DNA of 32,000 bases, taken from NCBI GenBank assembly GCA_001552015.1, contig CP010514.1, positions 1 through 32,000 of the forward strand, in the 5' to 3' direction. Below, in pieces: positions 5,012 through 31,576 of the stretch. How positions within the stretch are numbered: position 1 is the first letter of the stretch; each line of letters begins with the position of its first letter. Under the pieces are notes generated by a model that made no database searches, had not been told where the DNA came from, and saw only the letters and a list, made by a program, of their open reading frames with translations. A program made the position numbers and the translations under genes. This stretch comes from Candidatus Nanopusillus acidilobi. GTDB lineage: Archaea > Nanobdellota > Nanobdellia > Nanobdellales > Nanobdellaceae.

Positions 5012-6765
5012 AAAGAATTGCTGTAATTGATAGGGATAGGTGTAAAGCTCCTGAAAAATGTGATTATTTATGTATGAAAGTATGTCCTGTTCAAAAGAAT
5101 AATTTAAAAATATTTAATATTTTACAAGATAAAAAACCATCTATTGATGAATCTTTATGTATTGGATGTGGAATATGTGTAAAGAAATGTCCATTTAATG
5201 CAATAATAATTATAAACTTAACAAGGGAACCTGAAGCAAAACCTGTATTTCAATATGGTCCAAATACATTTAGATTATATAGATTACCAATAATTAAGGA
5301 AGGAAAAGTTGTTGGGATAATTGGAAGGAATGGAATGGGTAAAAGTACAGCAATAAATATAATAGCTGGTTTATTAAAACCAAATTTTGGTGATTTTAAT
5401 AAAAAATATGATGATAAAGAAATTATAAGAGAATTTAGGGGTTCTGAACTTCAATTATATTTTGAAAAATTATATAATAATAAAATAATAATCTCATATA
5501 AACCACAGAATATTACACAAATAAAAAATATGCTAAAAGATAAAACGGTTAGGGAATTTTTATCAAAAGTTATAAATAATTTAGATGAAGTATCAAAAAA
5601 ATTTGAAATAGAAAATATATTAGATAGAAAAATTGGAGATTTATCTGGAGGAGAATTTCAGAAAGTATTATATATATATTCTGTATATAAGGAACATAAT
5701 TTATTATTAATTGATGAGGTTACAAATTACTTAGATATATATGAAAGATTGAGAATATTAAATAATTTAAATGAAATAAAGGAAAAAGATACAATATTGA
5801 TAATAGATCATGATTTATTATTTTTAGATTCAATTTCTGATATAATACATATTGTTTATGGAGTACAAAAGGCATATGGTGCTTTTTCATATCCTGTTGG
5901 ATCAAAGGAAGGTATAAATCAATATTTAAATGGATTTATAAAGAGAGAAAATTTAAAAATAAGGGATAAACCGATAAGATTGGATGTAAAAAGTTATACT
6001 GATGTAAAACTTGGAAAAAAGATTGTTGAATGGGGAAATATTATAGTAAATTTAGATAATTTTAGGCTTGAAGCAAATCCTGGATATATAAGGGAAAATG
6101 AAATAATAGGAGTAATTGGAAGAAATGGGATTGGAAAAAGTACTTTTGTAAAAACTTTAGCTGGAGAAATAAAATATGAAGGAAATATATCAAAAAATTT
6201 AACAATATCATATAAACCTCAATTTTATGATTTATCGAATTATAATATAACTGTAGATCAATTTTTGAAGAGTTTTAATGAAAAATATAAAGAAGAATAT
6301 AAAGAATATTTATCAATTTTAAATATTTCTGATCTATTAGATAGAGAAGTTAATACATTATCTGGAGGAGAATTACAGACAGTATATACTTTTGGTACAT
6401 TAATAAAAGATGCAGATTTATATTTAATAGATGAACCATTTGCAAATTTAGATATAGAACAAAGATTGGTTTTATCAAAATTTATAAGGGATATAATAAA
6501 AATTAGAGGGAAAGCTTGTTTAATTGTAGATCATGATTTAATATTCTTGAATTGGGTTTCTGATAGAATTTTGGTATTTGCAGGAGAACCTGGTAAATAT
6601 GGAAAAGCTCTTGGTATATATGAAAATAAGGAGGGATTAAATATATTTCTAAAACAATTAGATATAACAATGAGAACTGATGAGGAAACAAAAAGACCAA
6701 GAATTAATAAACAAAATAGTAGATTAGACCTTATACAAAAACAAAAAGGAATATATTACGAATAA
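5008..6765 (+). CDS. abce1: ABCE1 / RNase L inhibitor (ribosome recycling ATPase)
   Basis: 585 aa. The N-terminal Fe-S domain has CIGCGICVKKCP plus upstream Cys residues. There are two ABC cassettes: GRNGMGKST/LSGGE and GRNGIGKST/LSGGELQ. ATGA overlap with the upstream gene. Confidence 0.92.
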   Translation: MKRIAVIDRDRCKAPEKCDYLCMKVCPVQKNNLKIFNILQDKKPSIDESLCIGCGICVKKCPFNAIIIINLTREPEAKPVFQYGPNTFRLYRLPIIKEGKVVGIIGRNGMGKSTAINIIAGLLKPNFGDFNKKYDDKEIIREFRGSELQLYFEKLYNNKIIISYKPQNITQIKNMLKDKTVREFLSKVINNLDEVSKKFEIENILDRKIGDLSGGEFQKVLYIYSVYKEHNLLLIDEVTNYLDIYERLRILNNLNEIKEKDTILIIDHDLLFLDSISDIIHIVYGVQKAYGAFSYPVGSKEGINQYLNGFIKRENLKIRDKPIRLDVKSYTDVKLGKKIVEWGNIIVNLDNFRLEANPGYIRENEIIGVIGRNGIGKSTFVKTLAGEIKYEGNISKNLTISYKPQFYDLSNYNITVDQFLKSFNEKYKEEYKEYLSILNISDLLDREVNTLSGGELQTVYTFGTLIKDADLYLIDEPFANLDIEQRLVLSKFIRDIIKIRGKACLIVDHDLIFLNWVSDRILVFAGEPGKYGKALGIYENKEGLNIFLKQLDITMRTDEETKRPRINKQNSRLDLIQKQKGIYYE

Positions 6766-10939: not shown

Positions 10940-12717
10940 TGTTAATAATAGCAGAAAAACCTTCTGTAGCTAGAAAGATTTCATCATTCTTATCAAATAA
11001 TAAATATAGAACAGTAAGATTTTCAAAATATATATATTATTATTATTTTAATCAAGAAAAAAGAAATATATATGTTGTTCCTTCAATAGGTCATTTATTT
11101 ACATTATCTGATTTAGATAGAAAATATGATTATCCTACATTCAATTTTAGATGGGTTCCATCATATTTTGAGGATAGAATTATTGCAAAAAAATATTATA
11201 TTGAGATGTTTAGTAAATTTAGAAATGAGAATGAGATAATAATTGCAACAGATTACGATATAGAGGGAGAATTAATAGGTTATAATATTTTAAGATATGT
11301 ATTAAATAAAGAAAATGCAAATAGAATGATATTTTCTGCAATAACATATAAAGATATAGTAAGGGCTTTTAATAATAGGAAAGAAAGTTTAAATTTTGGT
11401 TATATATATGCTGGAGAAACTAGACATATAATAGATTGGTTATATGGTATAAATTTATCTAGAGCATTAACAAAGTCTCTATTTTATTATACAAGGAAAT
11501 TTGTTTTAAGTATTGGAAGGGTTCAGGGTCCAACATTAATGTTAGTATTTAATAGAGAAAATGAAATTGAAAACTTTAAACCTGAAGAATATTATAAAGT
11601 TGAAGCTTTGATTATAAAGGATGATAAAAAATTGAAATTTTCATATATAAAAGATAAAATAAAGGATAAAGATGAAGCAAATAAAATAAAAAATAGTGTT
11701 GAGAAATATTTAATTGTAATTAATGTAGATAAAAAAGAGGAAAAAGTAAATCCTCCACATCCATATAATTTAACAGATATACAGATGGATGCATATAAAT
11801 ATTATAAAATTAGTCCAAAGAGGACTTTAGATATTTTGCAATCTTTATATGAAAAGGGTTATGTATCATATCCAAGAACATCTTCTCAAAGATTACCTGA
11901 AACAATTAATTTTAGGGAAATATTGTCAAATTTATCATCAATAAATTCTTATAAGAAATATATAGCTCCTTTATTGGCAAAACAAATTTTAAAACCAAAT
12001 AATGGACCTAAGGATGATGTACATCCTGCAATACATCCTACAGGAAATATTCCAGAATATTTAGAATATAAGGAAAAATTAATTTATGATTTAGTAGTTA
12101 AAAGATTTATTGCAACATTTTATGATCCTGCAATATTGTATAAAATAAATGTTATTACAAAAGAAAATTTTGTTTACAATTATTATGATATAAAATATAA
12201 AGGATGGTTAGATATTTATTGGGAAATATATAAGAACAACTTTATTTCTTTAAAATTTAATATAGGAGAAAAATTGTTAGTAGATAAAGTTAATATATTA
12301 AAGAGAAAAACAAAACCGCCTGCAAGATATAATAAAGCTTCTTTGGTTAAAAAAATGGAAGAATTAAATTTAGGAACAAAAAGTACAAGGGCAGATATTG
12401 TTGAAATATTATTTAAGAGGAAATATGTTGAGGGAAGATCAATAAAAATAACTGAATTAGGTAAAAAAATTATTGAAATATTTGAGAAATATTATCCAGA
12501 TATTTTGGACATAAACTTTACAAGAAAAATGGAAGAAAATTTGGAAAAACTAGAAAATAAACCTGATATAAGCTTAAAGGAAAAAATAATTGAAGAAAAT
12601 GTGGAAATAATAAAAGATTTATCTAAAGTTATGAAGGAAAATGAGAAAAAAATTGGTGAAGAATTGTATAACTTTATTAAAGATTATTTAAATAAAAGAA
12701 AATTAAAAAGTAATTGA
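10939..12717 (+). CDS. topA: Type IA DNA topoisomerase (TopA/Topo III-like)
   Basis: 592 aa. TOPRIM start is MLIIAEKPS, with an acidic DYDIEGE motif. The active-site tyrosine context is GYVSYPRTSSQRL. The start overlaps the upstream stop (TAATG). Confidence 0.88.
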   Translation: MLIIAEKPSVARKISSFLSNNKYRTVRFSKYIYYYYFNQEKRNIYVVPSIGHLFTLSDLDRKYDYPTFNFRWVPSYFEDRIIAKKYYIEMFSKFRNENEIIIATDYDIEGELIGYNILRYVLNKENANRMIFSAITYKDIVRAFNNRKESLNFGYIYAGETRHIIDWLYGINLSRALTKSLFYYTRKFVLSIGRVQGPTLMLVFNRENEIENFKPEEYYKVEALIIKDDKKLKFSYIKDKIKDKDEANKIKNSVEKYLIVINVDKKEEKVNPPHPYNLTDIQMDAYKYYKISPKRTLDILQSLYEKGYVSYPRTSSQRLPETINFREILSNLSSINSYKKYIAPLLAKQILKPNNGPKDDVHPAIHPTGNIPEYLEYKEKLIYDLVVKRFIATFYDPAILYKINVITKENFVYNYYDIKYKGWLDIYWEIYKNNFISLKFNIGEKLLVDKVNILKRKTKPPARYNKASLVKKMEELNLGTKSTRADIVEILFKRKYVEGRSIKITELGKKIIEIFEKYYPDILDINFTRKMEENLEKLENKPDISLKEKIIEENVEIIKDLSKVMKENEKKIGEELYNFIKDYLNKRKLKSN

Positions 12718-12752
12718 TAAAATTTATAAATAACAACAAAACCAAAAATTAA

Positions 12753-13184
12753 ATGCCACCAAAAGAAAGAAATATACTTCTTATTTATATATTAGGTTTT
12801 GTAACATTTGGAATATATATTTTATATTGGCTGTATGAGACAAAAAAAGAATTGGAAGAATTAGGAGCAGATATACCATCATTTATACTATATTTCATAC
12901 CAATAGTAAATATATATTGGTTATATAGATATACAAAAGGATGGGCTTATGTTACTAAGAAAAATGAAGGCAATGCAATAGTATACTTTATATTATTTCT
13001 GTTCCTTGGTATAGTTATGCCATATTTAGTTCAAAAGAGTTTAAATCAAATAGCAAGGAATTATAAGAGGCAACAAATGATGAGACAGCGTATGTCACCA
13101 CAGTATTATCCAGGATATCCATATTATCAGAGACAACAATCCCCAGGATATTCAAATTATCCAGCAGGTCAGTTTAGAATGTAG
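12753..13184 (+). CDS. Small two-TM membrane protein (DUF4234-like) with a Q/Y/P-rich C-terminal tail
   Basis: 143 aa. Repeated GIYILYWLY / VNIYWLYRY hydrophobic motifs. The tail is RQQMMRQRMSPQYYPGYPYYQRQQSPGYSNYPAGQFRM. A TATA-like TTTATAAATA is centred about 26 nt upstream of the ATG. Confidence 0.5.
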   Translation: MPPKERNILLIYILGFVTFGIYILYWLYETKKELEELGADIPSFILYFIPIVNIYWLYRYTKGWAYVTKKNEGNAIVYFILFLFLGIVMPYLVQKSLNQIARNYKRQQMMRQRMSPQYYPGYPYYQRQQSPGYSNYPAGQFRM

Positions 13185-21835: not shown

Positions 21836-22744
21836 ATGGAGAAGGAAAAAGAAGAAAATAATGAAAGGAAAGAAGGGAAGTTTAATCTTGGTTTGGAAGA
21901 GTCAATAATAATAGGATTTATAGTATTGGCAGTTTCAGTAGTTTTAGGATCATATATTGTAGCAAATTCAATATCAAATATAAAAATATATGGATCATCT
22001 AGTAGTTCTTCAAGTCAATTGCAAACATATTTGCAAACATTACAGCAGGTTCCATTACCAAATATTACAAATATAGATCCAGTATATGGAAATCCAAATA
22101 ATGTAAATGTTATTGTATATGAATTCTCAGATTATGCATGTCCATATTGTGATCTATTTTATTTACAAACATTTCCACAAATTGAGCAAAATTATATAGA
22201 TAATGGAAAAATAGCATGGGTATATATTGTTTTCCCATTATATCAAATACATCCATATGCAAATATATCATCACAATATTTAACATGTGTATATGAATTA
22301 TATGGATTTAATACATGGGAAGAATTTGCAAATTGGAGCTGGTATAATCAAATGCAAAATATATCATGGGATACTTTGTCAAGTCAACAAGATGTATATA
22401 ATGTATTTAATGAAGAAGCTCAGGCTTTGGGATTAAATGTTAATGAAATAGATTCTTGTGTAAATAGTTCGGAATATTATTATCAAATATATAATCAGGA
22501 AAATTATGATATGAATACATATGGAATTGGAGGAACTCCATCATTTATAATAGCTGTAAAAACATCTTCTATTACATTTCAAACAGTTCAACAGGTTAAT
22601 AGTGTATTAAATCAATTAAAGCAATATGGATTAAGTCCTTCAGTTTATACAACTCCAGATTATAGTTATATAATGTTTGAGTTTGCAGGGGCTTTACCAT
22701 ATAATTTCTTTAATAGTGTATTACAGCCTTTAGTATCTGGCTGA
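21836..22744 (+). CDS. Membrane-anchored DsbA/thioredoxin-fold thiol:disulfide oxidoreductase
   Basis: 302 aa. N-terminal TM helix, Ser-rich linker, CPYC active-site motif (DYACPYCD) and a cis-Pro loop-like GGTPSFII. Confidence 0.65.
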   Translation: MEKEKEENNERKEGKFNLGLEESIIIGFIVLAVSVVLGSYIVANSISNIKIYGSSSSSSSQLQTYLQTLQQVPLPNITNIDPVYGNPNNVNVIVYEFSDYACPYCDLFYLQTFPQIEQNYIDNGKIAWVYIVFPLYQIHPYANISSQYLTCVYELYGFNTWEEFANWSWYNQMQNISWDTLSSQQDVYNVFNEEAQALGLNVNEIDSCVNSSEYYYQIYNQENYDMNTYGIGGTPSFIIAVKTSSITFQTVQQVNSVLNQLKQYGLSPSVYTTPDYSYIMFEFAGALPYNFFNSVLQPLVSG

Positions 22745-22779: not shown

Positions 22780-24111
22780 ATGGCAAGAGAAAAACCACAT
22801 ATTAATTTGGTAGTAGTAGGGCATGTAGATAATGGAAAATCAACATTAGTAGGAAGGCTAATGGTATCTTTGAATTTAATAGATCAGAAAGTATTAGAAG
22901 AATTAAAAAATGTAGCAAAGGAATTTGGAAAGGAATCAGAATATTTAGCATTCTTATTAGATAAATCAATAGAAGAAAGAAAGAGAGGAGTAACAATTGA
23001 TGTAGCTGCAATTAAAATACCTGCAAAGAAATATGTATTAACAATATTGGATGCTCCAGGTCATAGAGACTTTATAAAGAATATGATTAGTGGTACTGCT
23101 CAATCTGATGCTGCAATATTAGTTGTTTCTGCAGCGCCTGGTGAAGCAGAAACAGCGTTGGGTCCAGAAGGACAGGGAAGAGAGCATTTATTATTATTAA
23201 GAACATTGGGAATTCCACAAGTTATTATTGCGGTATCAAAGATGGATGCTGTAAATTATGATCAAAAGAGATATGAACAAGTAAAGAATATGGTATTAAC
23301 ATTGGCAAAACAAATTGGTTATACTGAAAAACAAATAAAAGCAATTGTTCCAATTGCTGCATTCTTATCAGATGAAAATGTAACACAAAAATCACAAAAA
23401 ATGCCATGGTATAATGGTCCAACGATATATGAAGCATTTGATATGTTGGATGAACCTCCAAGATTGGTAGATAAACCATTAAGGATCCCAATTGGTGATG
23501 TATATAATATTAAAGGTGTAGGACTTGTACCAACTGGAAAGGTAGAATCTGGAAGATTAAAACCTGGTGATAGAGTAATATTCTTACCATCAAAGAAACC
23601 AAATGGTGTTGTAGGTGAAGTAAAATCAATAGAAATGCATCATGAAAGATTAGATGAAGCATTACCAGGAGATAATATTGGATTTAACGTTAAAGGACCT
23701 GAAAGCGGTGATATATTAAGGGGAGATGTATGTGGAAAATTGGGAGAAGCATTACCAAAATTAGCAGAAGAATTTACTGCAAGAATTTATGTATTATATC
23801 ATCCATCTGCAATTGCTGTAGGATATACACCAGTAATACATATACATACTGCAGCAGTAGCATGTAAAATTGTAGAAATACAATCAAAAATAGATCCAAG
23901 AACTGGACAGGAAGTTGAAAAGAATCCACAATTCTTAAAGACAGGAGATGCAGCAATTGTAAAGTTTGTACCAACAAAACCATTAATAGTAGAAAGATTT
24001 GAAGATTTCCCAAACACATCTTTGGGAAGATTTGCAATTAGAGATATGAATAAAACAATTGGAATTGGACAGGTATTAAGTGTAAAAGAAAAGCAGGTAC
24101 AATTAAAGTAA
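22780..24111 (+). CDS. tuf: Translation elongation factor EF-1 alpha
   Basis: 443 aa. G1 GHVDNGKST, G3 DAPGH and G4 SKMD (NKMD-type) motifs are present. G+C is elevated and the codon bias looks like that of a highly expressed gene. Confidence 0.95.
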   Translation: MAREKPHINLVVVGHVDNGKSTLVGRLMVSLNLIDQKVLEELKNVAKEFGKESEYLAFLLDKSIEERKRGVTIDVAAIKIPAKKYVLTILDAPGHRDFIKNMISGTAQSDAAILVVSAAPGEAETALGPEGQGREHLLLLRTLGIPQVIIAVSKMDAVNYDQKRYEQVKNMVLTLAKQIGYTEKQIKAIVPIAAFLSDENVTQKSQKMPWYNGPTIYEAFDMLDEPPRLVDKPLRIPIGDVYNIKGVGLVPTGKVESGRLKPGDRVIFLPSKKPNGVVGEVKSIEMHHERLDEALPGDNIGFNVKGPESGDILRGDVCGKLGEALPKLAEEFTARIYVLYHPSAIAVGYTPVIHIHTAAVACKIVEIQSKIDPRTGQEVEKNPQFLKTGDAAIVKFVPTKPLIVERFEDFPNTSLGRFAIRDMNKTIGIGQVLSVKEKQVQLK

Positions 24112-24112
24112 A

Positions 24113-24129
24113 TTTTTTAATTTTATTTT
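24113..24129 (+). terminator. Oligo-T tract cluster downstream of EF-1alpha (T6, T4, T4)
   Basis: TTTTTT at 24113-24118 starts 2 nt after the stop codon, followed by further T runs. Archaeal termination typically uses oligo-T signals. Confidence 0.4.
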
Positions 24130-24150
24130 AAATAATTATAAAAATTTTAT

Positions 24151-24191
24151 TGGCCTGAGGGATTCGAATCCCGAACCACTGGGTCTCAGAG
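24151..24191 (-). pseudogene. tRNA-like 3-prime fragment or hairpin (T-arm-like GGGATTCGAATCCC plus acceptor-like TCAGGCC-A), with no 5-prime half
   Basis: The minus-strand read is CTCTGAGACCCAGTGGTTCGGGATTCGAATCCCTCAGGCCA. It has a TTCGAAT T-loop consensus with one extra base, so no canonical 5-bp T stem forms. It is GC-rich within AT-rich surroundings. The adjacent sequence shows no D-arm or acceptor 5-prime strand. Confidence 0.3.
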
Positions 24192-24328
24192 AAGTTAAAT
24201 AAACGATGTATTGTTAAATGTCAAATGTTCAACATTAGATCAAACAATAGAGAAAGGATTAGTAAAATGAAATAAAGTGAAAAATCTACTGCGCATAAGA
24301 TGTTAAAGCATTAAAGTCCCAAGTTTAA

Positions 24329-24448
24329 TTATGCATGAGGTATTCTATGTACTTTCAAATGACTTAGAGATCTAATCTTTCGAATTATTTGTTTTAATTT
24401 ATATTTCTCTAGAATTGGTCTTATTTCTATGATATAACTATTTCTCAT
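24329..24448 (-). CDS. Possible 39-aa basic ORF or gene remnant downstream of direct-repeat copy 1
   Basis: My translation is MRNSYIIEIRPILEKYKLKQIIRKIRSLSHLKVHRIPHA. The ATG lies 34 nt from repeat copy 1, with an AT-rich TATA-like stretch between them. This mirrors the MFS start, which is 37 nt from copy 2. There is no family support. Confidence 0.2.
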   Translation of the reverse strand: MRNSYIIEIRPILEKYKLKQIIRKIRSLSHLKVHRIPHA

Positions 24449-24481
24449 TATATTTTTATATTTCTCTTATTATTAAAAAGG

Positions 24482-24501
24482 GAGTGTTCTCATGTAGTCA
24501 T
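24482..24501. repeat. Direct repeat copy 1: GAGTGTTCTCATGTAGTCAT
   Basis: 19/20 identical to 26172-26191 in the same orientation. I found no other full copy in the window. Confidence 0.85.
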
Positions 24502-24698
24502 CCTATTCGATATTGAATAATAAAATTATATTATACTCTTTGCTAACAATTCAGCAGCAATTGTAAAGCCTATAAATATCCCTACAAATTCAAGCCAGAA
24601 AAGAATTATTAGTGTATGTTCTCAGATAATAACCTATAAGCTTAAACTTAGCTATTAACAATTAATTAAAGTAAAGAGAGAGGAAAGTTGATAAAAGT

Positions 24699-26135
24699 TT
24701 ATTGACTATGACTTTGATCTACCTGTACCAACTGAGCTCTAGCCTCCTTACCTCTTAATGCAGATAAAACTAGTGCAACAGCTAATATTCCTAACGATAC
24801 GTAAAAAGCTGACTTTAAACCTGTTAAGAAAGAACTGGCCACACCACCTATTAAATTTGTAGTTCCCAGGAACACTTCAAATGCAACATATCTAGGAACA
24901 GTCGCAGAGGATACACTTATTGCTATAACGTAACTTAAAAGAGTCCCTATATTTGATAAAGTTCTGGCTAAGCCAGAAGCACCGCCATAAAATCCTCTGG
25001 GTGCATTAGCCATTATAGCGCTATTATTAGCTGGGAAGAATAGAGAAGAACCTAAACCGCCTATTGTTGAAGCGATTATAATAATGTATAAAGGAGTACT
25101 GATTGAAAGGTGTAAATATATGAAAATAGCTAACATCATTAAAGTTAACCCAATTGTAGCAGGTATTCTAGCACCTATCTTATCTGATAATCTTCCGGTA
25201 AATGGTGAAACTAAACCGGCTAAAACATAACCTGGAACTAATAGTAAGGATGCGTTGAAAGGCGATAAACCTCTAATCCCTTGAAGATACATTATTATAA
25301 TGAATGCCGTGGCTAAATAACCCGTTGTTTGAAGAAATGACGCGAATAGAGAATAAGTAAATACCCTGCTTGCTTTAAAAGCTTTCAGATCTATTATAGG
25401 AAACTGCTGTCTCCTTTCAACCAATATAAATCCTAATAATATAATTAAACCGGCAGAGATTAAGTAAATGTTTAATAACCTCACCCCTTCCCCTGCAATA
25501 TCAGCAGCTCCATAGGATATTAAGGATAGTGAAGCCAATAAACTTAGCATACCTATAATATCCAGTTTAGTATTTCTTCTTTCCAGATCTTTTATATATC
25601 TTAATCCCAATATTATAGCAACGATTCCTATTGGAACGTTAATATAAAATATATATCTCCAGCCTACGAAAGTTGTTATAAAACCTCCTAAAACTATCCC
25701 TAAAGTAGCTCCAGCGTTCCAACCTATTGAAGTATATCCATAAGCTTTACCCCTTTGATTTGGAGGAAATATATCAGCAATTATAGCCCCAGAATTAGAT
25801 TGCATCATTGCAGCCCCCAACCCTTGAACTCCCCTAAATGCTACTAGGGAAATTGCATTAGGAGAGGCTCCACAGAGAATTGAACCTATTGTAAATATTG
25901 CAAATCCTAAATTATAAAAGCGAGACCTACCGTAAATATCACCTAATCTACCTAACTGAGTTGTAAAGACCGCTATAACTAGAAGGTAAAGTATGATAAC
26001 CCAAATAATTACGTAAAGGTTAGTATGCAATTCTTGAGCGATAGATGGAATCGCTAAGATTACAATGGTTGTATCCACAGCCGACATTAACGTTCCTAAA
26101 ACGATGACCAGCAACGCTAAGTTATTTGAATTCAT
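24699..26135 (-). CDS. MFS transporter, DHA2 (EmrB/QacA-like, 14-TMS) drug:H+ antiporter family
   Basis: 478 aa. N-terminal [16 protein letters not shown], the MFS motif [20 protein letters not shown], and [11 protein letters not shown]. The length and hydrophobic pattern fit 14 TMS. G+C is much higher than in the rest of the window. Confidence 0.85.
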
Positions 26136-26137
26136 AA

Positions 26138-26156
26138 TTAATTGTTAGACAATTAA
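26138..26156. promoter_or_regulatory. Perfect 8-3-8 palindrome TTAATTGT-tag-ACAATTAA between the TATA-like element and the ATG of the MFS gene (operator-like)
   Basis: Read directly from the sequence. It lies 3-21 nt upstream of the minus-strand ATG (26135). An A-rich TATA-like AAAAAATAAATAG lies just upstream of it on the minus strand. Confidence 0.3.
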
Positions 26157-26171
26157 CTATTTATTTTTTCT

Positions 26172-26191
26172 GAGTGCTCTCATGTAGTCAT
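26172..26191. repeat. Direct repeat copy 2: GAGTGCTCTCATGTAGTCAT
   Basis: 19/20 identical to 24482-24501. It lies 37 nt upstream of the MFS start on the minus strand. Confidence 0.85.
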
Positions 26192-26362
26192 ATCTCTCAA
26201 GTAAGCATCATTCAAATGTGTCTTCTCCCCTCGAATAAATTACTGGATGCATGACATTAAGTAGGGCCTGTTAATAATATTAGGGTGTTAAATAAAAATT
26301 TGTTGTGCGTTCAATTTATGTCTTTATATAGAGAATGAAAATCCCTTCAATTAAACTATTAA

Positions 26363-26452
26363 TGGGCCCGAGGGGACTCGAACCCCTGACCTCCGGCTTT
26401 CTTAGGAGCGTAGCCTTATAAGGCCGGCGCTCCACCTCTGAGCTACGGGCCC
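26363..26452 (-). tRNA. tRNA-Ile (anticodon UAU) with an 18-nt intron at the canonical 37/38 position (intron 26399-26416)
   Basis: The minus-strand read begins GGGCCCG-TA-GCTC-AGAGGTG-GAGC-G-CCGGC-CTTATA, followed by the intron AGGCTACGCTCCTAAGAA. It continues A-GCCGG-AGGTC-AGGGG-TTCGAGT-CCCCT-CGGGCCC-A. All stems are perfect. CTTA (32-35) pairs with the intron TAAG, giving a 4-bp helix flanked by 3-nt bulges TA|A and AA|A, which is bulge-helix-bulge geometry. Confidence 0.8.
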
Positions 26453-26482: not shown

Positions 26483-28522
26483 ATGTCTTTTCTTATATGC
26501 GTTTTTTCTAATATAATATATATGGATGATACAAAGGAAGTTGAAATTTTGGATGCTGGATTTTTAGGACAAATTTTTGATGCTTCAAAAGAAGAAATTG
26601 AAAAATTTATTAAGGAAGAAGAAAAATCTATTGTATTAGATTATGAGAAAATAAAATCATATTTAAATAATAAACAATTAGATCTCCTATTAAATAAAAC
26701 AGAAAGTTTTCTAGAACAACTTAGTATATATTTTTCTGAAAGATTAGAGAGAAAGGTAAAGATAAGAATAAAAAACCTTCCTGAAAGTTTGAGATATTTA
26801 AGGATAAGGGATATTAGATCTGAACATAAGGATAAATTAATACAGGTTGAGGGTATAATAAAAATATCTTCAGAAGTAAGGCCTTTTATTATAAAAACAA
26901 AATATTTACATGAAGATTGTGGTGGAGAATTTTGGGTTGAAAATAAGAATTTTGTAATAGAAAAACCAAAGAAATGTCCTGTATGTGGTGGTACAAAGGG
27001 AAAATTTATTGAAACAGATCATGAAACAATAGATGTACAAAGATTATTAATTGAAGAACCTGCAGATCAAATTGAAAAAGGAGAACAACCTGCTCAAATT
27101 ACTGTAATATTAAAGGAAGACTTATGTGAACCTAGGATGGAAAGGAAAACATTACCTGGAATAAGGGTTAAAATATATGGAATTGTAAAAGAATTAAAAA
27201 ATTCAAATTTTAAAGCGATATTGGATTTATATATAGATGCAATTTATATTGAACCTGTAGATAAAGATGTTGAAGATATATCAATATCTCCAGAAGATGA
27301 AAGAAAAATAAAAGAATTGGCAAAATCTGCAGATGTATTAAGTTTGATTGCAAGTTCTGTTGCTCCAGGTTTATATGGAAAGCATTATGAAATAATTAAA
27401 AAAGCAATTGCATTACAATTGGTATCTGGTGGAAAAAGAAAAAGAAGTGTTGATGAAAGAAAAAATATACACATATTAATTTTAGGAGATCCTGGTGTAG
27501 GAAAATCAAAATTATTAAGATATGTATCAGAAATTGCTCCAAAATCAAAATATGTAGTTGGAATAACATCATCTTCTGTAGGTTTAACTGCATCTGTTAG
27601 AAAAGATGAAATATTTAAAGGTGGATGGGTATTGGAAGCTGGAGCTCTGGTATTAACTTCTGGAGGACTTGTATGTATTGATGAACTTGATAAATTATCT
27701 ACAGAGGAATTGCAATCTTTACATGAAGCAATGGAACAACAAACAATAACAATTGATAAAGCAAATATTCATGCAACATTGAGAACGGAAACATCAATTT
27801 TGGCAGCTGCGAATCCAAAATTTGGAAGATGGGATAAGATGAAAAGTATAGTTGATCAAATAGATTTACCACCAACAATAATTAATAGATTTGATTTAAT
27901 ATTTGTTCTTATAGATGAACCAAATCCTCAACAGGATGAGGCAATTGTTGATGAACTATTGAAAGGTTTGAAAGAAGAAAAGAAAGCACCATTGGATAAA
28001 GATCTATTAAGAAAATATATAATATATGCAAAGAAAATTGAACCTCAATGGACAACTGCAGCTTTAGATATTGTAAAGGATTTCTATATAAAGTTAAGAT
28101 CTAGTTCTGGGGAAGATACAATACCAATAACTACAAGACAATTAATGTCAATAATAAGAATAGCTGAAGCTTCTGCAAAAATAAGATTATCTCCAGTAGT
28201 TACTGAAGATGATGTAAATCTTGCAAAAGAATTATTATTATATAGTTTGAAAGAAGTTGGAATAAATCCAGAAACTAATAGATTAGATATAGATATAATA
28301 ATGTCTGGAATTTCTTCTACACAAAGACAAAAACTATCAAAGGTATTGGATATAATAAAAGATTTACAAAAAGATTTTCCTGATGGCGTTCCATTAAATG
28401 AAATATTAAATGAATCTAAGAAATATAATTTGGAAGAAGAAAAAGTAAAAGAAACAATTGAGAAATTATTAAAGGAAGGATATATATATGAATCTGGAGA
28501 TAAGAAATATAAAGCTGTATAA
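26483..28522 (+). CDS. mcm: MCM replicative helicase
   Basis: 679 aa. N-terminal Zn motif (HEDCGGEF...CPVCGG), Walker A GDPGVGKSK, Walker B CIDELDK, arginine-finger region SRFDLIF-type (NRFDLIFVL) and a C-terminal winged helix. The first 13 codons (MSFLICVFSNIIY) look non-native, so the ATG at 26522 (MDDTKEV...) is a plausible true start. Confidence 0.9.
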   Translation: MSFLICVFSNIIYMDDTKEVEILDAGFLGQIFDASKEEIEKFIKEEEKSIVLDYEKIKSYLNNKQLDLLLNKTESFLEQLSIYFSERLERKVKIRIKNLPESLRYLRIRDIRSEHKDKLIQVEGIIKISSEVRPFIIKTKYLHEDCGGEFWVENKNFVIEKPKKCPVCGGTKGKFIETDHETIDVQRLLIEEPADQIEKGEQPAQITVILKEDLCEPRMERKTLPGIRVKIYGIVKELKNSNFKAILDLYIDAIYIEPVDKDVEDISISPEDERKIKELAKSADVLSLIASSVAPGLYGKHYEIIKKAIALQLVSGGKRKRSVDERKNIHILILGDPGVGKSKLLRYVSEIAPKSKYVVGITSSSVGLTASVRKDEIFKGGWVLEAGALVLTSGGLVCIDELDKLSTEELQSLHEAMEQQTITIDKANIHATLRTETSILAAANPKFGRWDKMKSIVDQIDLPPTIINRFDLIFVLIDEPNPQQDEAIVDELLKGLKEEKKAPLDKDLLRKYIIYAKKIEPQWTTAALDIVKDFYIKLRSSSGEDTIPITTRQLMSIIRIAEASAKIRLSPVVTEDDVNLAKELLLYSLKEVGINPETNRLDIDIIMSGISSTQRQKLSKVLDIIKDLQKDFPDGVPLNEILNESKKYNLEEEKVKETIEKLLKEGYIYESGDKKYKAV

Positions 28523-30568: not shown

Positions 30569-30874
30569 ATGTCTCTTTTCGAAGAAGAAGGAGTTCCTGT
30601 TCCTAAGGATAGGCAAGTTATAGGAATAATTGAGGAGGTTGTTGGTTGGGCACATGCAAGGGTAAGATGTTTTGATGGAAAAACAAGAATATGTAGAGTT
30701 CCACAAAATAAGAAAATGCATAAGAATATATGGTTAAAAAAGGGTACATATGTATTAGTAGAACCATGGGAGTTACAATCTGATAAAAAAGGAGATATAT
30801 TATATTCATATACAGATTCAGAAGTTGAATGGCTAAAAAAGAAAGGATATTTAAAGATTGAGGAAGAGTTTTAG
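30569..30874 (+). CDS. eif1a: Translation initiation factor aIF1A
   Basis: 101 aa. S1/OB core VIGIIEEVVGWAHARVRCFDGKTRICRVPQNKKMHKNIWLKKGTYVLVEPW is typical of eIF1A. Confidence 0.9.
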   Translation: MSLFEEEGVPVPKDRQVIGIIEEVVGWAHARVRCFDGKTRICRVPQNKKMHKNIWLKKGTYVLVEPWELQSDKKGDILYSYTDSEVEWLKKKGYLKIEEEF

Positions 30875-30944
30875 GGCCCGTAGTCTAGTGGCAGGACGGT
30901 GGGCTCCAGACCCATTGACGGGGGTTCGAATCCCCCCGGGCCCA
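30874..30944 (+). tRNA. tRNA-Trp (anticodon CCA), no intron
   Basis: The fold is GGGCCCG-TA-GTCT-AGTGGCA-GGAC-G-GTGGG-CTCCAGA-CCCAT-TGAC-GGGGG-TTCGAAT-CCCCC-CGGGCCC-A. It is a clean cloverleaf. Its first G is the last base of the aIF1A TAG stop codon. Confidence 0.9.
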
Positions 30945-30983: not shown

Positions 30984-31172
30984 TTAAATATTGTAATTGT
31001 TTGATATATTGCCAAATGTTTGATTTAAAGCATTATTTGATGTATTTGATAAATTTTGTTGAGATGATGAGATTTTCAAAGTTTGAGGGACTACAAAAAT
31101 TATAACTACTACTAAAACAATAAGTCCAATTATTAAAAAAAATACAAAATCTATAGCATCAGATCTTTTCAT
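30984..31172 (-). CDS. Small N-terminally anchored secreted or pilin-like protein
   Basis: 62 aa. It has a short charged N-terminus, a roughly 22-aa hydrophobic helix, and an N/S/Q-rich tail with several N-x-S/T sequons (NLS, NTS, NQT, NIS). It resembles the neighbouring pilin-like ORF in layout. The prepilin cleavage motif is unclear. Confidence 0.4.
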   Translation of the reverse strand: MKRSDAIDFVFFLIIGLIVLVVVIIFVVPQTLKISSSQQNLSNTSNNALNQTFGNISNNYNI

Positions 31173-31210
31173 ATTTTAATTTATTATATAAAAGATGAAC
31201 TTATAAAAGA

Positions 31211-31576
31211 TTAGGATGGGCACACCAACTCATCACCCATGGTTGTGCAAGTTATAGTTGTAGTCGTAGTTATAATCGTAGACGTAAATTCTCCATTCTC
31301 CCCCACTCCATAAGACGTAGTTGTAGTCGTAGTTGTAATTATAGTTGTAGAATATTGGGATGAGCTAGATCCGCCGTTTACTTGATTTGATATATTATTT
31401 ATTGCTTGACCTGTTTGATTTGTTTGATTCAATGTTGGATTTAATACATTTTGTGTTCCAGTTATTCCCTTAGAAAATGTACCTGTAAAGAATAATACTA
31501 CAACTATTAAGGCAACAAGTGCTATTATCAATATAATAATTGTATTAATTGCTATGGATTGGCCTTTCTTTACCAT
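31211..31576 (-). CDS. Archaeal type IV pilin-like protein (class III signal peptide) with poly-Thr repeats
   Basis: 121 aa. MVKKGQS followed by the hydrophobic IAINTIIILIIALVALIVVVLFF fits a KG|Q class III signal. The N/Q/T-rich region contains sequons. There are two TIITTTTT(T) blocks and a C-terminal Cys pair. Confidence 0.6.
   Translation of the reverse strand: MVKKGQSIAINTIIILIIALVALIVVVLFFTGTFSKGITGTQNVLNPTLNQTNQTGQAINNISNQVNGGSSSSQYSTTIITTTTTTTSYGVGENGEFTSTIITTTTTITCTTMGDELVCPS

Follow-up and report, generated by a model that had tools for sequence, protein, structure and literature searches.

Probable recent capture of Saccharolobus-type chromosomal DNA, with an MFS transporter gene, at a tRNA-Ile(UAU) site in the nanoarchaeal ectosymbiont Candidatus Nanopusillus acidilobi

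Nanoarchaeota have hardly any transporters and obtain lipids and metabolites from their hosts. The SSV- and pNOB8-type tyrosine integrases of the Sulfolobales belong to tRNA-targeted elements and are associated with 'gene capture' in archaeal chromosomes; a regenerated tRNA with a distal repeat of its 3' segment is the typical attachment (att) footprint of these enzymes. The locus described here lies in a window of 32,000 nucleotides from Candidatus Nanopusillus acidilobi (GenBank assembly GCA_001552015.1, contig CP010514.1, positions 1–32,000 of the forward strand), in which a block at 24151–26452 holds an intact transporter gene of the major facilitator superfamily (MFS) between a decayed tRNA 3' fragment and tRNA-Ile(UAU). 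Gene exchange between DPANN symbionts and their hosts is already established, and what is new here is an unusually well resolved and recent example rather than a new type of system. Podar et al. 2013 (PMC3655853) reported 'no strong evidence of gene exchange' for Nst1, the host of which is Sulfolobales Acd1, with AroD and two uncharacterised proteins as the only candidates; in Jarett et al. 2018 (PMC6142677) there are no more than four unannotated proteins shared with Thermocladium. An MFS transporter is mentioned in neither paper, and a literature search gave no paper pairing Nanoarchaeota with an MFS/EmrB gene.

As in the known cases of horizontal gene transfer between DPANN symbionts and hosts (Nanoarchaeum equitans/Ignicoccus and Nst1/Acd1), a reduced ectosymbiont has a gene whose nearest relatives lie in the crenarchaeal lineage of the host. 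Unlike in those cases, the donor segment, both junctions, the empty site and the decay intermediates are resolved at the nucleotide level, and the donor copy is still ∼97% identical. The locus also resembles the SSV- and pNOB8-type tRNA-targeted elements in its insertion at a tRNA 3' end, the regenerated tRNA, the distal partial 3' repeat and the erosion to an immobile island. It differs from them in lacking a recognisable integrase gene or fragment in every variant and in having no genes of plasmids or viruses; its cargo is collinear chromosome of the host, and the recipient belongs to a different phylum from the donor. We consider, with a probability of roughly 80%, that the block is a piece of host chromosome recently captured by a nanoarchaeal ectosymbiont at a tRNA site. 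Its features are listed below, where L169 and L091 are donor contigs, L089 is a related nanoarchaeal contig, L006 is a nanoarchaeal contig with an empty site and the T box is a short sequence of ∼52 nt that is discussed further on.

24151–24191, minus strand: decayed duplicate of the tRNA-Ile(UAU) 3' exon (last ∼39 nt, 28 of 39 positions matching), an att-like repeat at the far end of the island
24192–24334, no strand: 143 nt of no recognised source between the tRNA fragment and the phosphoesterase remnant, shared by L089 alone (94% over 107 nt)
24335–24475, minus strand: phosphoesterase remnant, with 27 nt of promoter and the first 38 codons of a 386-residue gene (L169 11408–11548, 95.7% identity)
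24476–24531, minus strand: T box copy T_L, at the junction of the two donor pieces (core 20-nt repeat at 24482–24501)
24532–24609, minus strand: start of a Na+/Ca2+ exchanger gene, first 26 codons, with the ATG mutated to ATA (base-by-base alignment with L091)
24610–24698, minus strand: MFS-to-exchanger spacer of 89 nt (alignment with L091; 24532–24698 corresponds to L169 5574–5740)
24699–26135, minus strand: intact DHA2/EmrB-like MFS transporter gene of 478 codons, of Saccharolobus origin (Pfam MFS_1, E 9e-61)
26136–26170, minus strand: donor-derived MFS promoter with a TATA-like AAAAAATAAATAG box, identical to the upstream sequence in L091 and L169
26171–26191, minus strand: incomplete T box copy T_R, of which the last ∼21 nt are left, adjoining the transferred promoter on its upstream side
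26192–26362, no strand: 171 nt of no recognised source from the T box to the tRNA, 75–89% identical in island contigs and absent from L006
26363–26452, minus strand: intact, intron-containing tRNA-Ile(UAU), the insertion site (Rfam tRNA, 64 bits, E 6e-13)

The MFS protein is most similar to other nanoarchaeal copies (91–95% identity), followed by those of the Sulfolobaceae (80–84%; Sulfolobus sp. A20, S. tengchongensis, Saccharolobus spp. and S. acidocaldarius) and of other Sulfolobales (∼65%). The MCM protein of the window reaches only 40–44% identity outside its own lineage. In a neighbour-joining tree (all trees were built by this method and carry no support values) the nanoarchaeal MFS clade is nested within Sulfolobus/Saccharolobus. 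The original prediction, which had been made from the sequence of the window alone, took the gene to be foreign and Sulfolobales-like; the BLAST-type comparison that it called for bears this out, as the best non-nanoarchaeal matches are Sulfolobaceae. A metagenome scan then gave four contigs (L091, L100, L143 and L148) that carry an MFS gene 96–97% identical in DNA to that of the window between non-nanoarchaeal flanks, in the order MFS, Na+/Ca2+ exchanger, amino-acid permease, which is syntenic with the complete chromosome of Sulfolobus sp. A20. In L091 the exchanger protein has a match of 100% identity that NCBI attributes to a Saccharolobus sp. metagenome-assembled genome (MAG). On these comparisons, the donor lineage is an uncultured Saccharolobus (Sulfolobaceae).

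The longest donor contig, L169 (GCA_053497855.1; 13.6 kb), has the order toxin–antitoxin, ferredoxin, MFS, exchanger, permease, GH57 and, after further genes, a single 386-residue gene of the 2H-phosphoesterase plus calcineurin-like phosphoesterase type. Positions 24532–26169 of the window correspond to L169 4103–5740 with 96.9% DNA identity (97% for the MFS gene itself, with 41 differences in 1437 nt). Similarity to L091 and L169 ends 35–36 nt upstream of the MFS ATG, and on the other side the base-by-base alignment with L091 stops at window position 24532, within the exchanger gene; the exchanger remnant translates as I-ILFWLEFVGIFIGFTIAAELLAK in the window and as MILFWLEFVGIFVGLTIAAELLAKG in the donor. 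The phosphoesterase remnant contains an open reading frame (ORF) at 24329–24448 (39 residues; Pfam 2_5_RNA_ligase2, E 2.4e-5) that matches the N-terminus of the intact 386-residue gene in L002 and L096, two related nanoarchaeal contigs; the same gene lies 5.7 kb further along L169. A native nanoarchaeal origin of the 386-residue gene was considered and rejected, since its G+C content at third codon positions (GC3) in the nanoarchaeon greatly exceeds that of native genes and L169 carries it too. Its best relatives outside the donor and the nanoarchaea are on contigs of 49–50% G+C. The stretch 24192–24698, which had been thought to be ∼500 bp of decayed cargo, does turn out to be so: it carries the stumps of two host genes, the exchanger and the phosphoesterase. 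Being collinear with a Saccharolobus MAG contig, the cargo is no mobile element. There is no tRNA beside the donor region in L169–L173 or L091 that could have offered a route by homologous recombination. Downstream of the permease, structure varies within the Saccharolobus donor population (L169 8450 and 11409/11410; L091 5411–5508; L143; L171); past L169 8450, three donor contigs run on into the reverse complement of L169 11409–10259.

The insertion site is well defined. The 3' end of tRNA-Ile(UAU) points into the block; the tRNA has an intron of 18–19 nt in the anticodon loop and a genomically encoded UAU anticodon, and ARAGORN calls its ortholog in L006 as tRNA-Ile (tat). The exons are identical across the window, L001, L002, L006 and L007, and three intron positions differ, in L006 only. 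The piece at 24151–24191 has the same orientation and stands where the 3' end of the tRNA stands in L006; six of its 11 differences from the last 39 nt of the tRNA are changes from G/C to A/T, and neither Rfam nor ARAGORN makes a call on it. Both tRNA claims of the original prediction, an intact minus-strand tRNA with its 3' end facing the block and a tRNA 3'-like piece at the far end, hold. The duplicate adjoins the ancestral EF-1alpha flank in the window (AAATTTTAT/TGG, with a slash for the junction), as does the intact tRNA in L006 (AAATTTTA/TGGGCCC); the junctions at greater length read AAATTTTA/TGGGCCCGAGGGGACTCGAACCCC in L006 and AAATTTTAT/TGGCCTGA-GGGATTCGAATCCC in the window. L006 3059–3097 aligns twice in the window, at 24134–24172 and at 26348–26386, the latter being the 3' end of the intact tRNA. 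Among the relatives, a 92% copy is found in L089, the duplicate is further decayed in L001 and truncated in L002, and in L007 it is missing. The G/C sites of the duplicate in the window have decayed by ∼22–26%, within the range of 9–39% at the synonymous G/C sites of the MFS gene across lineages, a level compatible with its having arisen together with the island. We also considered 24151–24191 as the 3' half of a split tRNA like those of N. equitans; it was rejected as the T-stem is broken, Rfam and ARAGORN are silent and the piece decays differently in, or is missing from, close relatives. The terrestrial nanoarchaeal clade is moreover reported to have no split tRNAs, which counts against this as well.

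L006 is a more distant nanoarchaeal contig (26% G+C, 75–84% DNA identity) that is collinear with the window for the thioredoxin-like protein, EF-1alpha, tRNA-Ile and MCM. Here the EF-1alpha stop codon is followed by 57 nt, the 3' end of tRNA-Ile and, beyond it, MCM, with zero insert, where the island-bearing contigs hold 0.3–3.2 kb. The empty EF-1alpha/tRNA-Ile/MCM site, which the original prediction had suggested looking for in related genomes, thus exists. L006 (DAXV01000044.1) is labelled as Acidilobaceae archaeon UBA158, a host MAG into which this contig of a nanoarchaeal symbiont was mis-binned; the EF-1alpha gene of L006 is present as two overlapping ORFs, which indicates a frameshift or an assembly error.

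In the window the block is bracketed by EF-1alpha (22780–24111, plus strand) and MCM (26483–28522, plus strand), and the interval between them contains the minus-strand MFS ORF of 478 residues, a 587-bp stretch (24112–24698) that has no long ORF and the minus-strand tRNA. The flanks (IleRS, the thioredoxin-like protein, EF-1alpha and MCM) have 92–93% DNA identity to contigs of Ca. Nanobsidianus stetteri and Nanopusillus sp. The arrangement of MCM, tRNA-Ile, MFS and, further on, EF-1alpha is common to L001 (the Ca. Nanobsidianus stetteri single-cell genome AB-777_F03), L002 (a Joint Genome Institute (JGI) hot-spring metagenome contig) and L007 (a Nanopusillus sp. MAG). The recipient is, by these flanks, a nanoarchaeon of the Nanobsidianus/Nanopusillus type.

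The base changes in the MFS gene are directional. When nanoarchaeal copies are compared with the donor, 9–39% of the synonymous third positions that are G/C in the donor are now A/T and 2–6% of those that are A/T are now G/C. The individual comparisons are as follows.

Window against the donor allele: G/C to A/T 11%, A/T to G/C 2.3%
L001, L002, L007 and L096 against the donor allele: G/C to A/T 30–39%, A/T to G/C 3–6%
Two Saccharolobus alleles against each other: three changes in each direction

The GC3 of the MFS gene is 0.257 in the donor, 0.246 in the window and 0.186–0.213 in L007, L002 and L001, a fall towards the native level of ∼0.13, and that of the 386-residue gene is 0.256 in the donor and 0.199 in L002. 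The A/T-biased change and the falling GC3 thus mark both genes as recent arrivals in the nanoarchaeon that are ameliorating. The order MFS, exchanger, permease is ancestral in the Sulfolobaceae, and the nanoarchaeon keeps only truncated starts of the donor's neighbouring genes. Donor synteny and amelioration together indicate that the transfer went from a host-type donor to the nanoarchaeon.

The bulk composition is a poorer guide than had been thought. The window has 24.5% G+C overall, with a GC3 of ∼0.09–0.14 in native genes. The original prediction had G+C doubling in the block, from 18% to 37–43%; the measured values are 34.6% in 24151–26452 and 23.7% in the remaining window, a 1.46-fold difference, and the neighbouring native EF-1alpha gene has 32.5%. 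The codons of the MFS gene had likewise been described as G/C-ending; GC3 is the sole codon measure that is roughly doubled (0.246 against a native mean of 0.129, s.d. 0.039, z ∼3), and at this value the codons are still mostly A/T-ending. Much of the raw G+C excess is held by the second codon position (0.428), which reflects amino-acid content. The non-coding stretch 24192–24698, supposed to be of intermediate composition, has 25.4% G+C, hardly above that of the intergenic DNA elsewhere in the window (22.5%), and 26171–26362, which includes a T box copy, has 31.8%. The true compositional signal of the block is in the synonymous positions.

The left end of the donor DNA is the same in all of the other nanoarchaeal contigs that cover it (16 of 16), the match beginning at L169 4099–4104, with the shared end 35 nt before the MFS start codon. 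Fourteen of the 16 reach the other end and, with the window, give 15 loci in seven retention patterns (L169 coordinates).

L089: 4102–6136
L090, L101, L093, L095 and L163: up to 5941–5945, joined to a segment that starts at 12614–12659 and ends at 12661–12737
L144: up to 5621, joined to 12617–12737
L007: 4102–5588, then 5820–5912, then 12617–12703
L088 and L094: 4102–5656 only, ∼105 bp from EF-1alpha
L001, L002 and L096: up to 5740, a T box of ∼52 nt, then 11408–12664 (with them L168, which keeps donor DNA as far as 5671 and, past the T box, resumes at 11408 until its contig ends)
Window: the 5740/T box/11408 junction of L001, L002 and L096, plus a deletion from 11548 to the 143-nt piece at 24192–24334

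The right-hand breakpoints thus vary (5588, 5656, 5740, 5941 and 6136), with rejoining at 11408 or 12617. The two retained pieces keep the donor order and orientation and are equally diverged in L002 (91.4% and 91.9% identity). Across the variants, at least 2.0 kb plus at least 1.3 kb of donor DNA is demonstrably present. We infer, as the simplest history, that one contiguous fragment of at least 8.6 kb was inserted once and that deletions then arose independently.

The T box accounts for a 20-nt direct repeat, GAGTGYTCTCATGTAGTCAT, which flanks the MFS gene at 24482–24501 and 26172–26191 (19 of 20 positions identical; two matches in the window against 0.08 expected by chance). The full T box of ∼52 nt is found upstream of the MFS gene in L089, L093 and L094; it was not found in the donor contigs. 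The geometry of repeat, insert and repeat fits a target-site duplication of the MFS segment. We nevertheless disfavour a transposon-like target-site duplication, as the second copy stands where two pieces that are not neighbours in the donor meet, and variants with different junctions lack it. T_L would instead be a filler of ∼50 nt copied from just upstream of the MFS promoter at a deletion junction.

That the block has one intact gene, of the MFS, was correctly foreseen (478-residue ORF at 24699–26135, Pfam MFS_1). Of 48 NCBIfam models, TIGR00711 (efflux_EmrB) is the best by a wide margin (E 2e-66). The protein shares this model, MFS_1 and its length with the DHA2 (EmrB/QacA) drug:H+ antiporters; a crude Kyte–Doolittle scan counts ∼13 hydrophobic peaks in its 478 residues, where the family has 14 transmembrane segments. 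JGI labels the homologs as EmrB/QacA subfamily. The proposed DHA2/EmrB type agrees with the best model, the score of which, 224.5 bits, is just under the cutoff of 230.2. Going by the family, proton-coupled export of the DHA2 type across the symbiont membrane is the likeliest function. We know of no archaeal member of the Sulfolobaceae MFS subgroup with a known substrate.

The ORF is unbroken in all 14 of the full-length nanoarchaeal copies that were translated or called; three further contigs hold only a cut-off part of the gene and are not among the 14. The ratio of nonsynonymous to synonymous divergence (dN/dS) among the nanoarchaeal copies is 0.11–0.23, similar to that of native genes (EF-1alpha 0.17, MCM 0.07, thioredoxin-like protein 0.36), and dS spans 0.02–0.31, as in the native flanking genes. 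An ORF that stays intact amid deletions and has a low dN/dS marks the gene as a functional resident. The MFS gene is the sole gene that is intact in every variant, held by purifying selection while drifting towards A/T, and the promoter that came with it would drive its transcription. According to PMC4935971, N. acidilobi has no more than five genes for ABC subunits and two for MFS permeases, a set so small that one extra transporter is a sizeable gain.

The distances among the MFS alleles are uneven. The dS to the donor-context allele of L091 is 0.035 for L090 and L101, 0.084 for the window and 0.19–0.25 for L001, L002, L007 and L096, whereas the native flanking genes show no such rate split among the nanoarchaeal contigs. 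L091 and L169 differ by 18 changes, 17 of them in alignment columns 450–900, and at the informative sites listed for these columns L091 shares the non-L169 states of L090 and L101. Neighbouring native genes give discordant dS values (22780–24111, 26483–28522 and 21836–22744, compared for L001, L002, L007, L088, L093 and L094); L088 and L093, for instance, have a dS of 0.05 in EF-1alpha and 0.32 in MCM. Homologous recombination is therefore common in the nanoarchaeal population.

The proposed sequence of events starts with host DNA, contiguous over at least 8.6 kb from the MFS gene to the phosphoesterase gene, that would have been inserted once at tRNA-Ile(UAU). Most likely, an element with a tyrosine integrase of the type that targets the 3' halves of tRNAs made the insertion; it would have carried or co-integrated the host DNA and since been lost, save for a few hundred unidentifiable bases at both ends. 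Later deletions would have taken the exchanger, the permease, the GH57 gene and, in the window, most of the phosphoesterase gene, and the filler of ∼50 nt from upstream of the MFS promoter would have stayed at one deletion junction. Three pieces inside the repeat-bounded block have no assigned source: window 24192–24334, window 26192–26362 and L007 7607–8020. None of them matches the donor loci compared; 24192–24334 in addition has no ORF and no match to phages or plasmids, and 26192–26362 gives no Pfam signal in six frames.

Several observations weigh against the capture of host DNA as set out above. No integrase, transposase or mobile-element gene is present in the window or in 16 related island contigs, a six-frame Pfam scan of window 26171–26362 and L007 7590–8030 revealed no integrase remnant, blastn searches of phages and plasmids with window 24112–24698 and L007 7600–8200 gave no match, and IMG/VR, queried with the T box and with the MFS protein, gave none either. 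No nanoarchaeal contig retains L169 6137–11407, the middle of the donor region, and a contiguous insert is therefore a presumption. The homology of the phosphoesterase block starts at L169 11408, no more than 2 nt from a structural-variant breakpoint of the donor (L169 11409/11410 in L091, L143 and L171), a coincidence which hints that this block could be a separately moving unit. The Saccharolobus-context alleles of L091 and L169 lie inside the nanoarchaeal allele cloud (dS 0.035–0.25), which one clock-like transfer fails to explain. Efflux function and expression of the MFS gene, finally, are predictions only. A vertically inherited membrane-protein gene with hydrophobic composition, or a chimeric assembly of host and symbiont, is a reading for which we see next to no chance. 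In favour of the first are the second codon position, which accounts for a large part of the raw excess in G+C, and the relatively high G+C of native EF-1alpha; in favour of the second, two related metagenome contigs (L092 and L095) do look chimeric. Both ideas are refuted by the empty site in L006, the 97% DNA identity to a Saccharolobus chromosome (including non-coding DNA and the remnant of a neighbouring gene), the nesting of the MFS gene in the Sulfolobaceae and the recurrence of the same junctions, diverged to 90–96% identity, in a single-cell genome, two MAGs and more than ten metagenome contigs. The original prediction had itself raised an assembly chimera, which this recurrence across independent assemblies excludes. 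L092 1–8196 and L095 1–4500 join the nanoarchaeal MFS locus to DNA of 44–50% G+C (for example, a gene resembling those of pyridoxal-phosphate-dependent Cys/Met metabolism); they are probably chimeric metagenome assemblies and were set aside. A movement of the MFS gene or the phosphoesterase block in the other direction, from the nanoarchaeon to Saccharolobus, is very improbable. It would account for the phosphoesterase being found in L169 only, of the four contigs that extend well beyond the permease, and beginning there at the breakpoint described above, and for homologs of the 386-residue protein being seen in no named Sulfolobaceae (the next matches, at 62% and 50–53%, are on unrelated high-G+C contigs). 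The GC3 of both genes in nanoarchaea (0.19–0.25), however, is far above the native 0.13, near the donor values of 0.256–0.257 and falling. For the MFS gene, reverse transfer is refuted, as its orthologs have the same neighbours across the Sulfolobaceae and the nanoarchaeon has a truncated exchanger start only.

How the host DNA came to be joined to the tRNA is less certain than its origin. The original prediction spoke of the classic footprint of tRNA-targeted integration; the tRNA, the 3' repeat and the empty site agree with this, but an integrase survives in no variant examined, as had been noted for the window, and that part stays an inference. We favour integration by a since-lost integrase-bearing vehicle, at about even odds, and place second, as a distinctly less probable route, integrase-independent capture, in which host DNA was joined at a break in or beside tRNA-Ile by end-joining or template-switch repair. 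Such repair would have made the ∼39-nt duplication, and only events that regenerated the single-copy, probably essential tRNA would have survived. This would suit the lack of any integrase in the island variants examined and a cargo of ordinary host chromosome; it gains plausibility from the T box, a second direct duplication (of ∼50 nt) made by the same lineage at a deletion junction with no recombinase in sight, and from the many independent illegitimate deletions at the locus. It sits less well with a duplicate that spans from the start of the 3' exon to the exact 3' end of the tRNA, with the perfect regeneration of the intact tRNA, and with the few hundred bases at both ends that match neither the sampled donor nor the recipient flank and could be the remains of a vehicle. 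The allele data raise a further alternative, that exchange was repeated: host MFS alleles would have overwritten the symbiont copy by homologous recombination, or a symbiont allele would have returned to the host. The donor alleles within the nanoarchaeal cloud, the uneven distances to L091 that the native flanks lack, the shared states in columns 450–900 of L091 and the frequent recombination in the nanoarchaeal population all point this way. Against it, assemblers may blend reads of MFS genes that are ∼97% identical, so the mosaic alleles may be artefacts, and the trees lack support values. The 141-nt phosphoesterase remnant of the window is also nearer to the donor (95.7%) than is the L002 copy (91.9%); this closeness extends over a junction found in the symbiont only, and a simple conversion tract would stop short of such a junction. 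We regard repeated exchange as possible, with the odds against it. A wider version is more tentative still: kilobases of host DNA would flow repeatedly and directly from the host cytoplasm into the attached nanoarchaeon, be fixed at a tRNA att-like site without a resident integrase, be pared down by selection to one transporter and have its allele refreshed more than once through recombination with present-day host alleles. If true, the populations of host and symbiont draw on one pool of alleles for the MFS gene.

Elsewhere in the window, two minus-strand ORFs (30984–31172, 62 residues; 31211–31576, 121 residues) have an N-terminus resembling a type IV pilin or class III signal peptide (MVKKGQSIAINTIIILIIALVALIVVVLFF) and tails rich in Thr, Ser and Asn. 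The 121-residue ORF was considered as a second foreign gene and rejected, since its GC3 of 0.24 is explained by the Thr-rich repeats of a pilin-like protein. Window 31181–31377 is replaced by 9 nt in L007, which therefore suggests a length-variable surface protein, just downstream of tRNA-Trp (30874–30944). The ORF at 12753–13184 (plus strand; 143 residues) contains a DUF4234 domain (E 1e-9), and its GC3, at 0.19, is somewhat raised.

On the preferred reading, capture from the host chromosome, at least 2 kb, and probably at least 8.6 kb, of ordinary host chromosome reached the symbiont genome recently, and the sole gene kept by selection is a membrane transporter that retains its host promoter. 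This bears on how material and DNA cross the small contact zone between host and symbiont. Sulfolobales (Acd1) and Sulfolobus sp. are reported as hosts or co-sorted partners of the clade (PMC3655853, PMC6142677); that Saccharolobus may be the physical host of the recipient rests on this literature for the clade and not on the L169 MAG itself. The donor contig, the empty site, both junctions and the seven retention patterns together make a rare natural time series of capture, amelioration and streamlining. The MFS locus is also a genetic marker that would tie a nanoarchaeal clade to a specific Saccharolobus lineage and could be used for host assignment in metagenomes.

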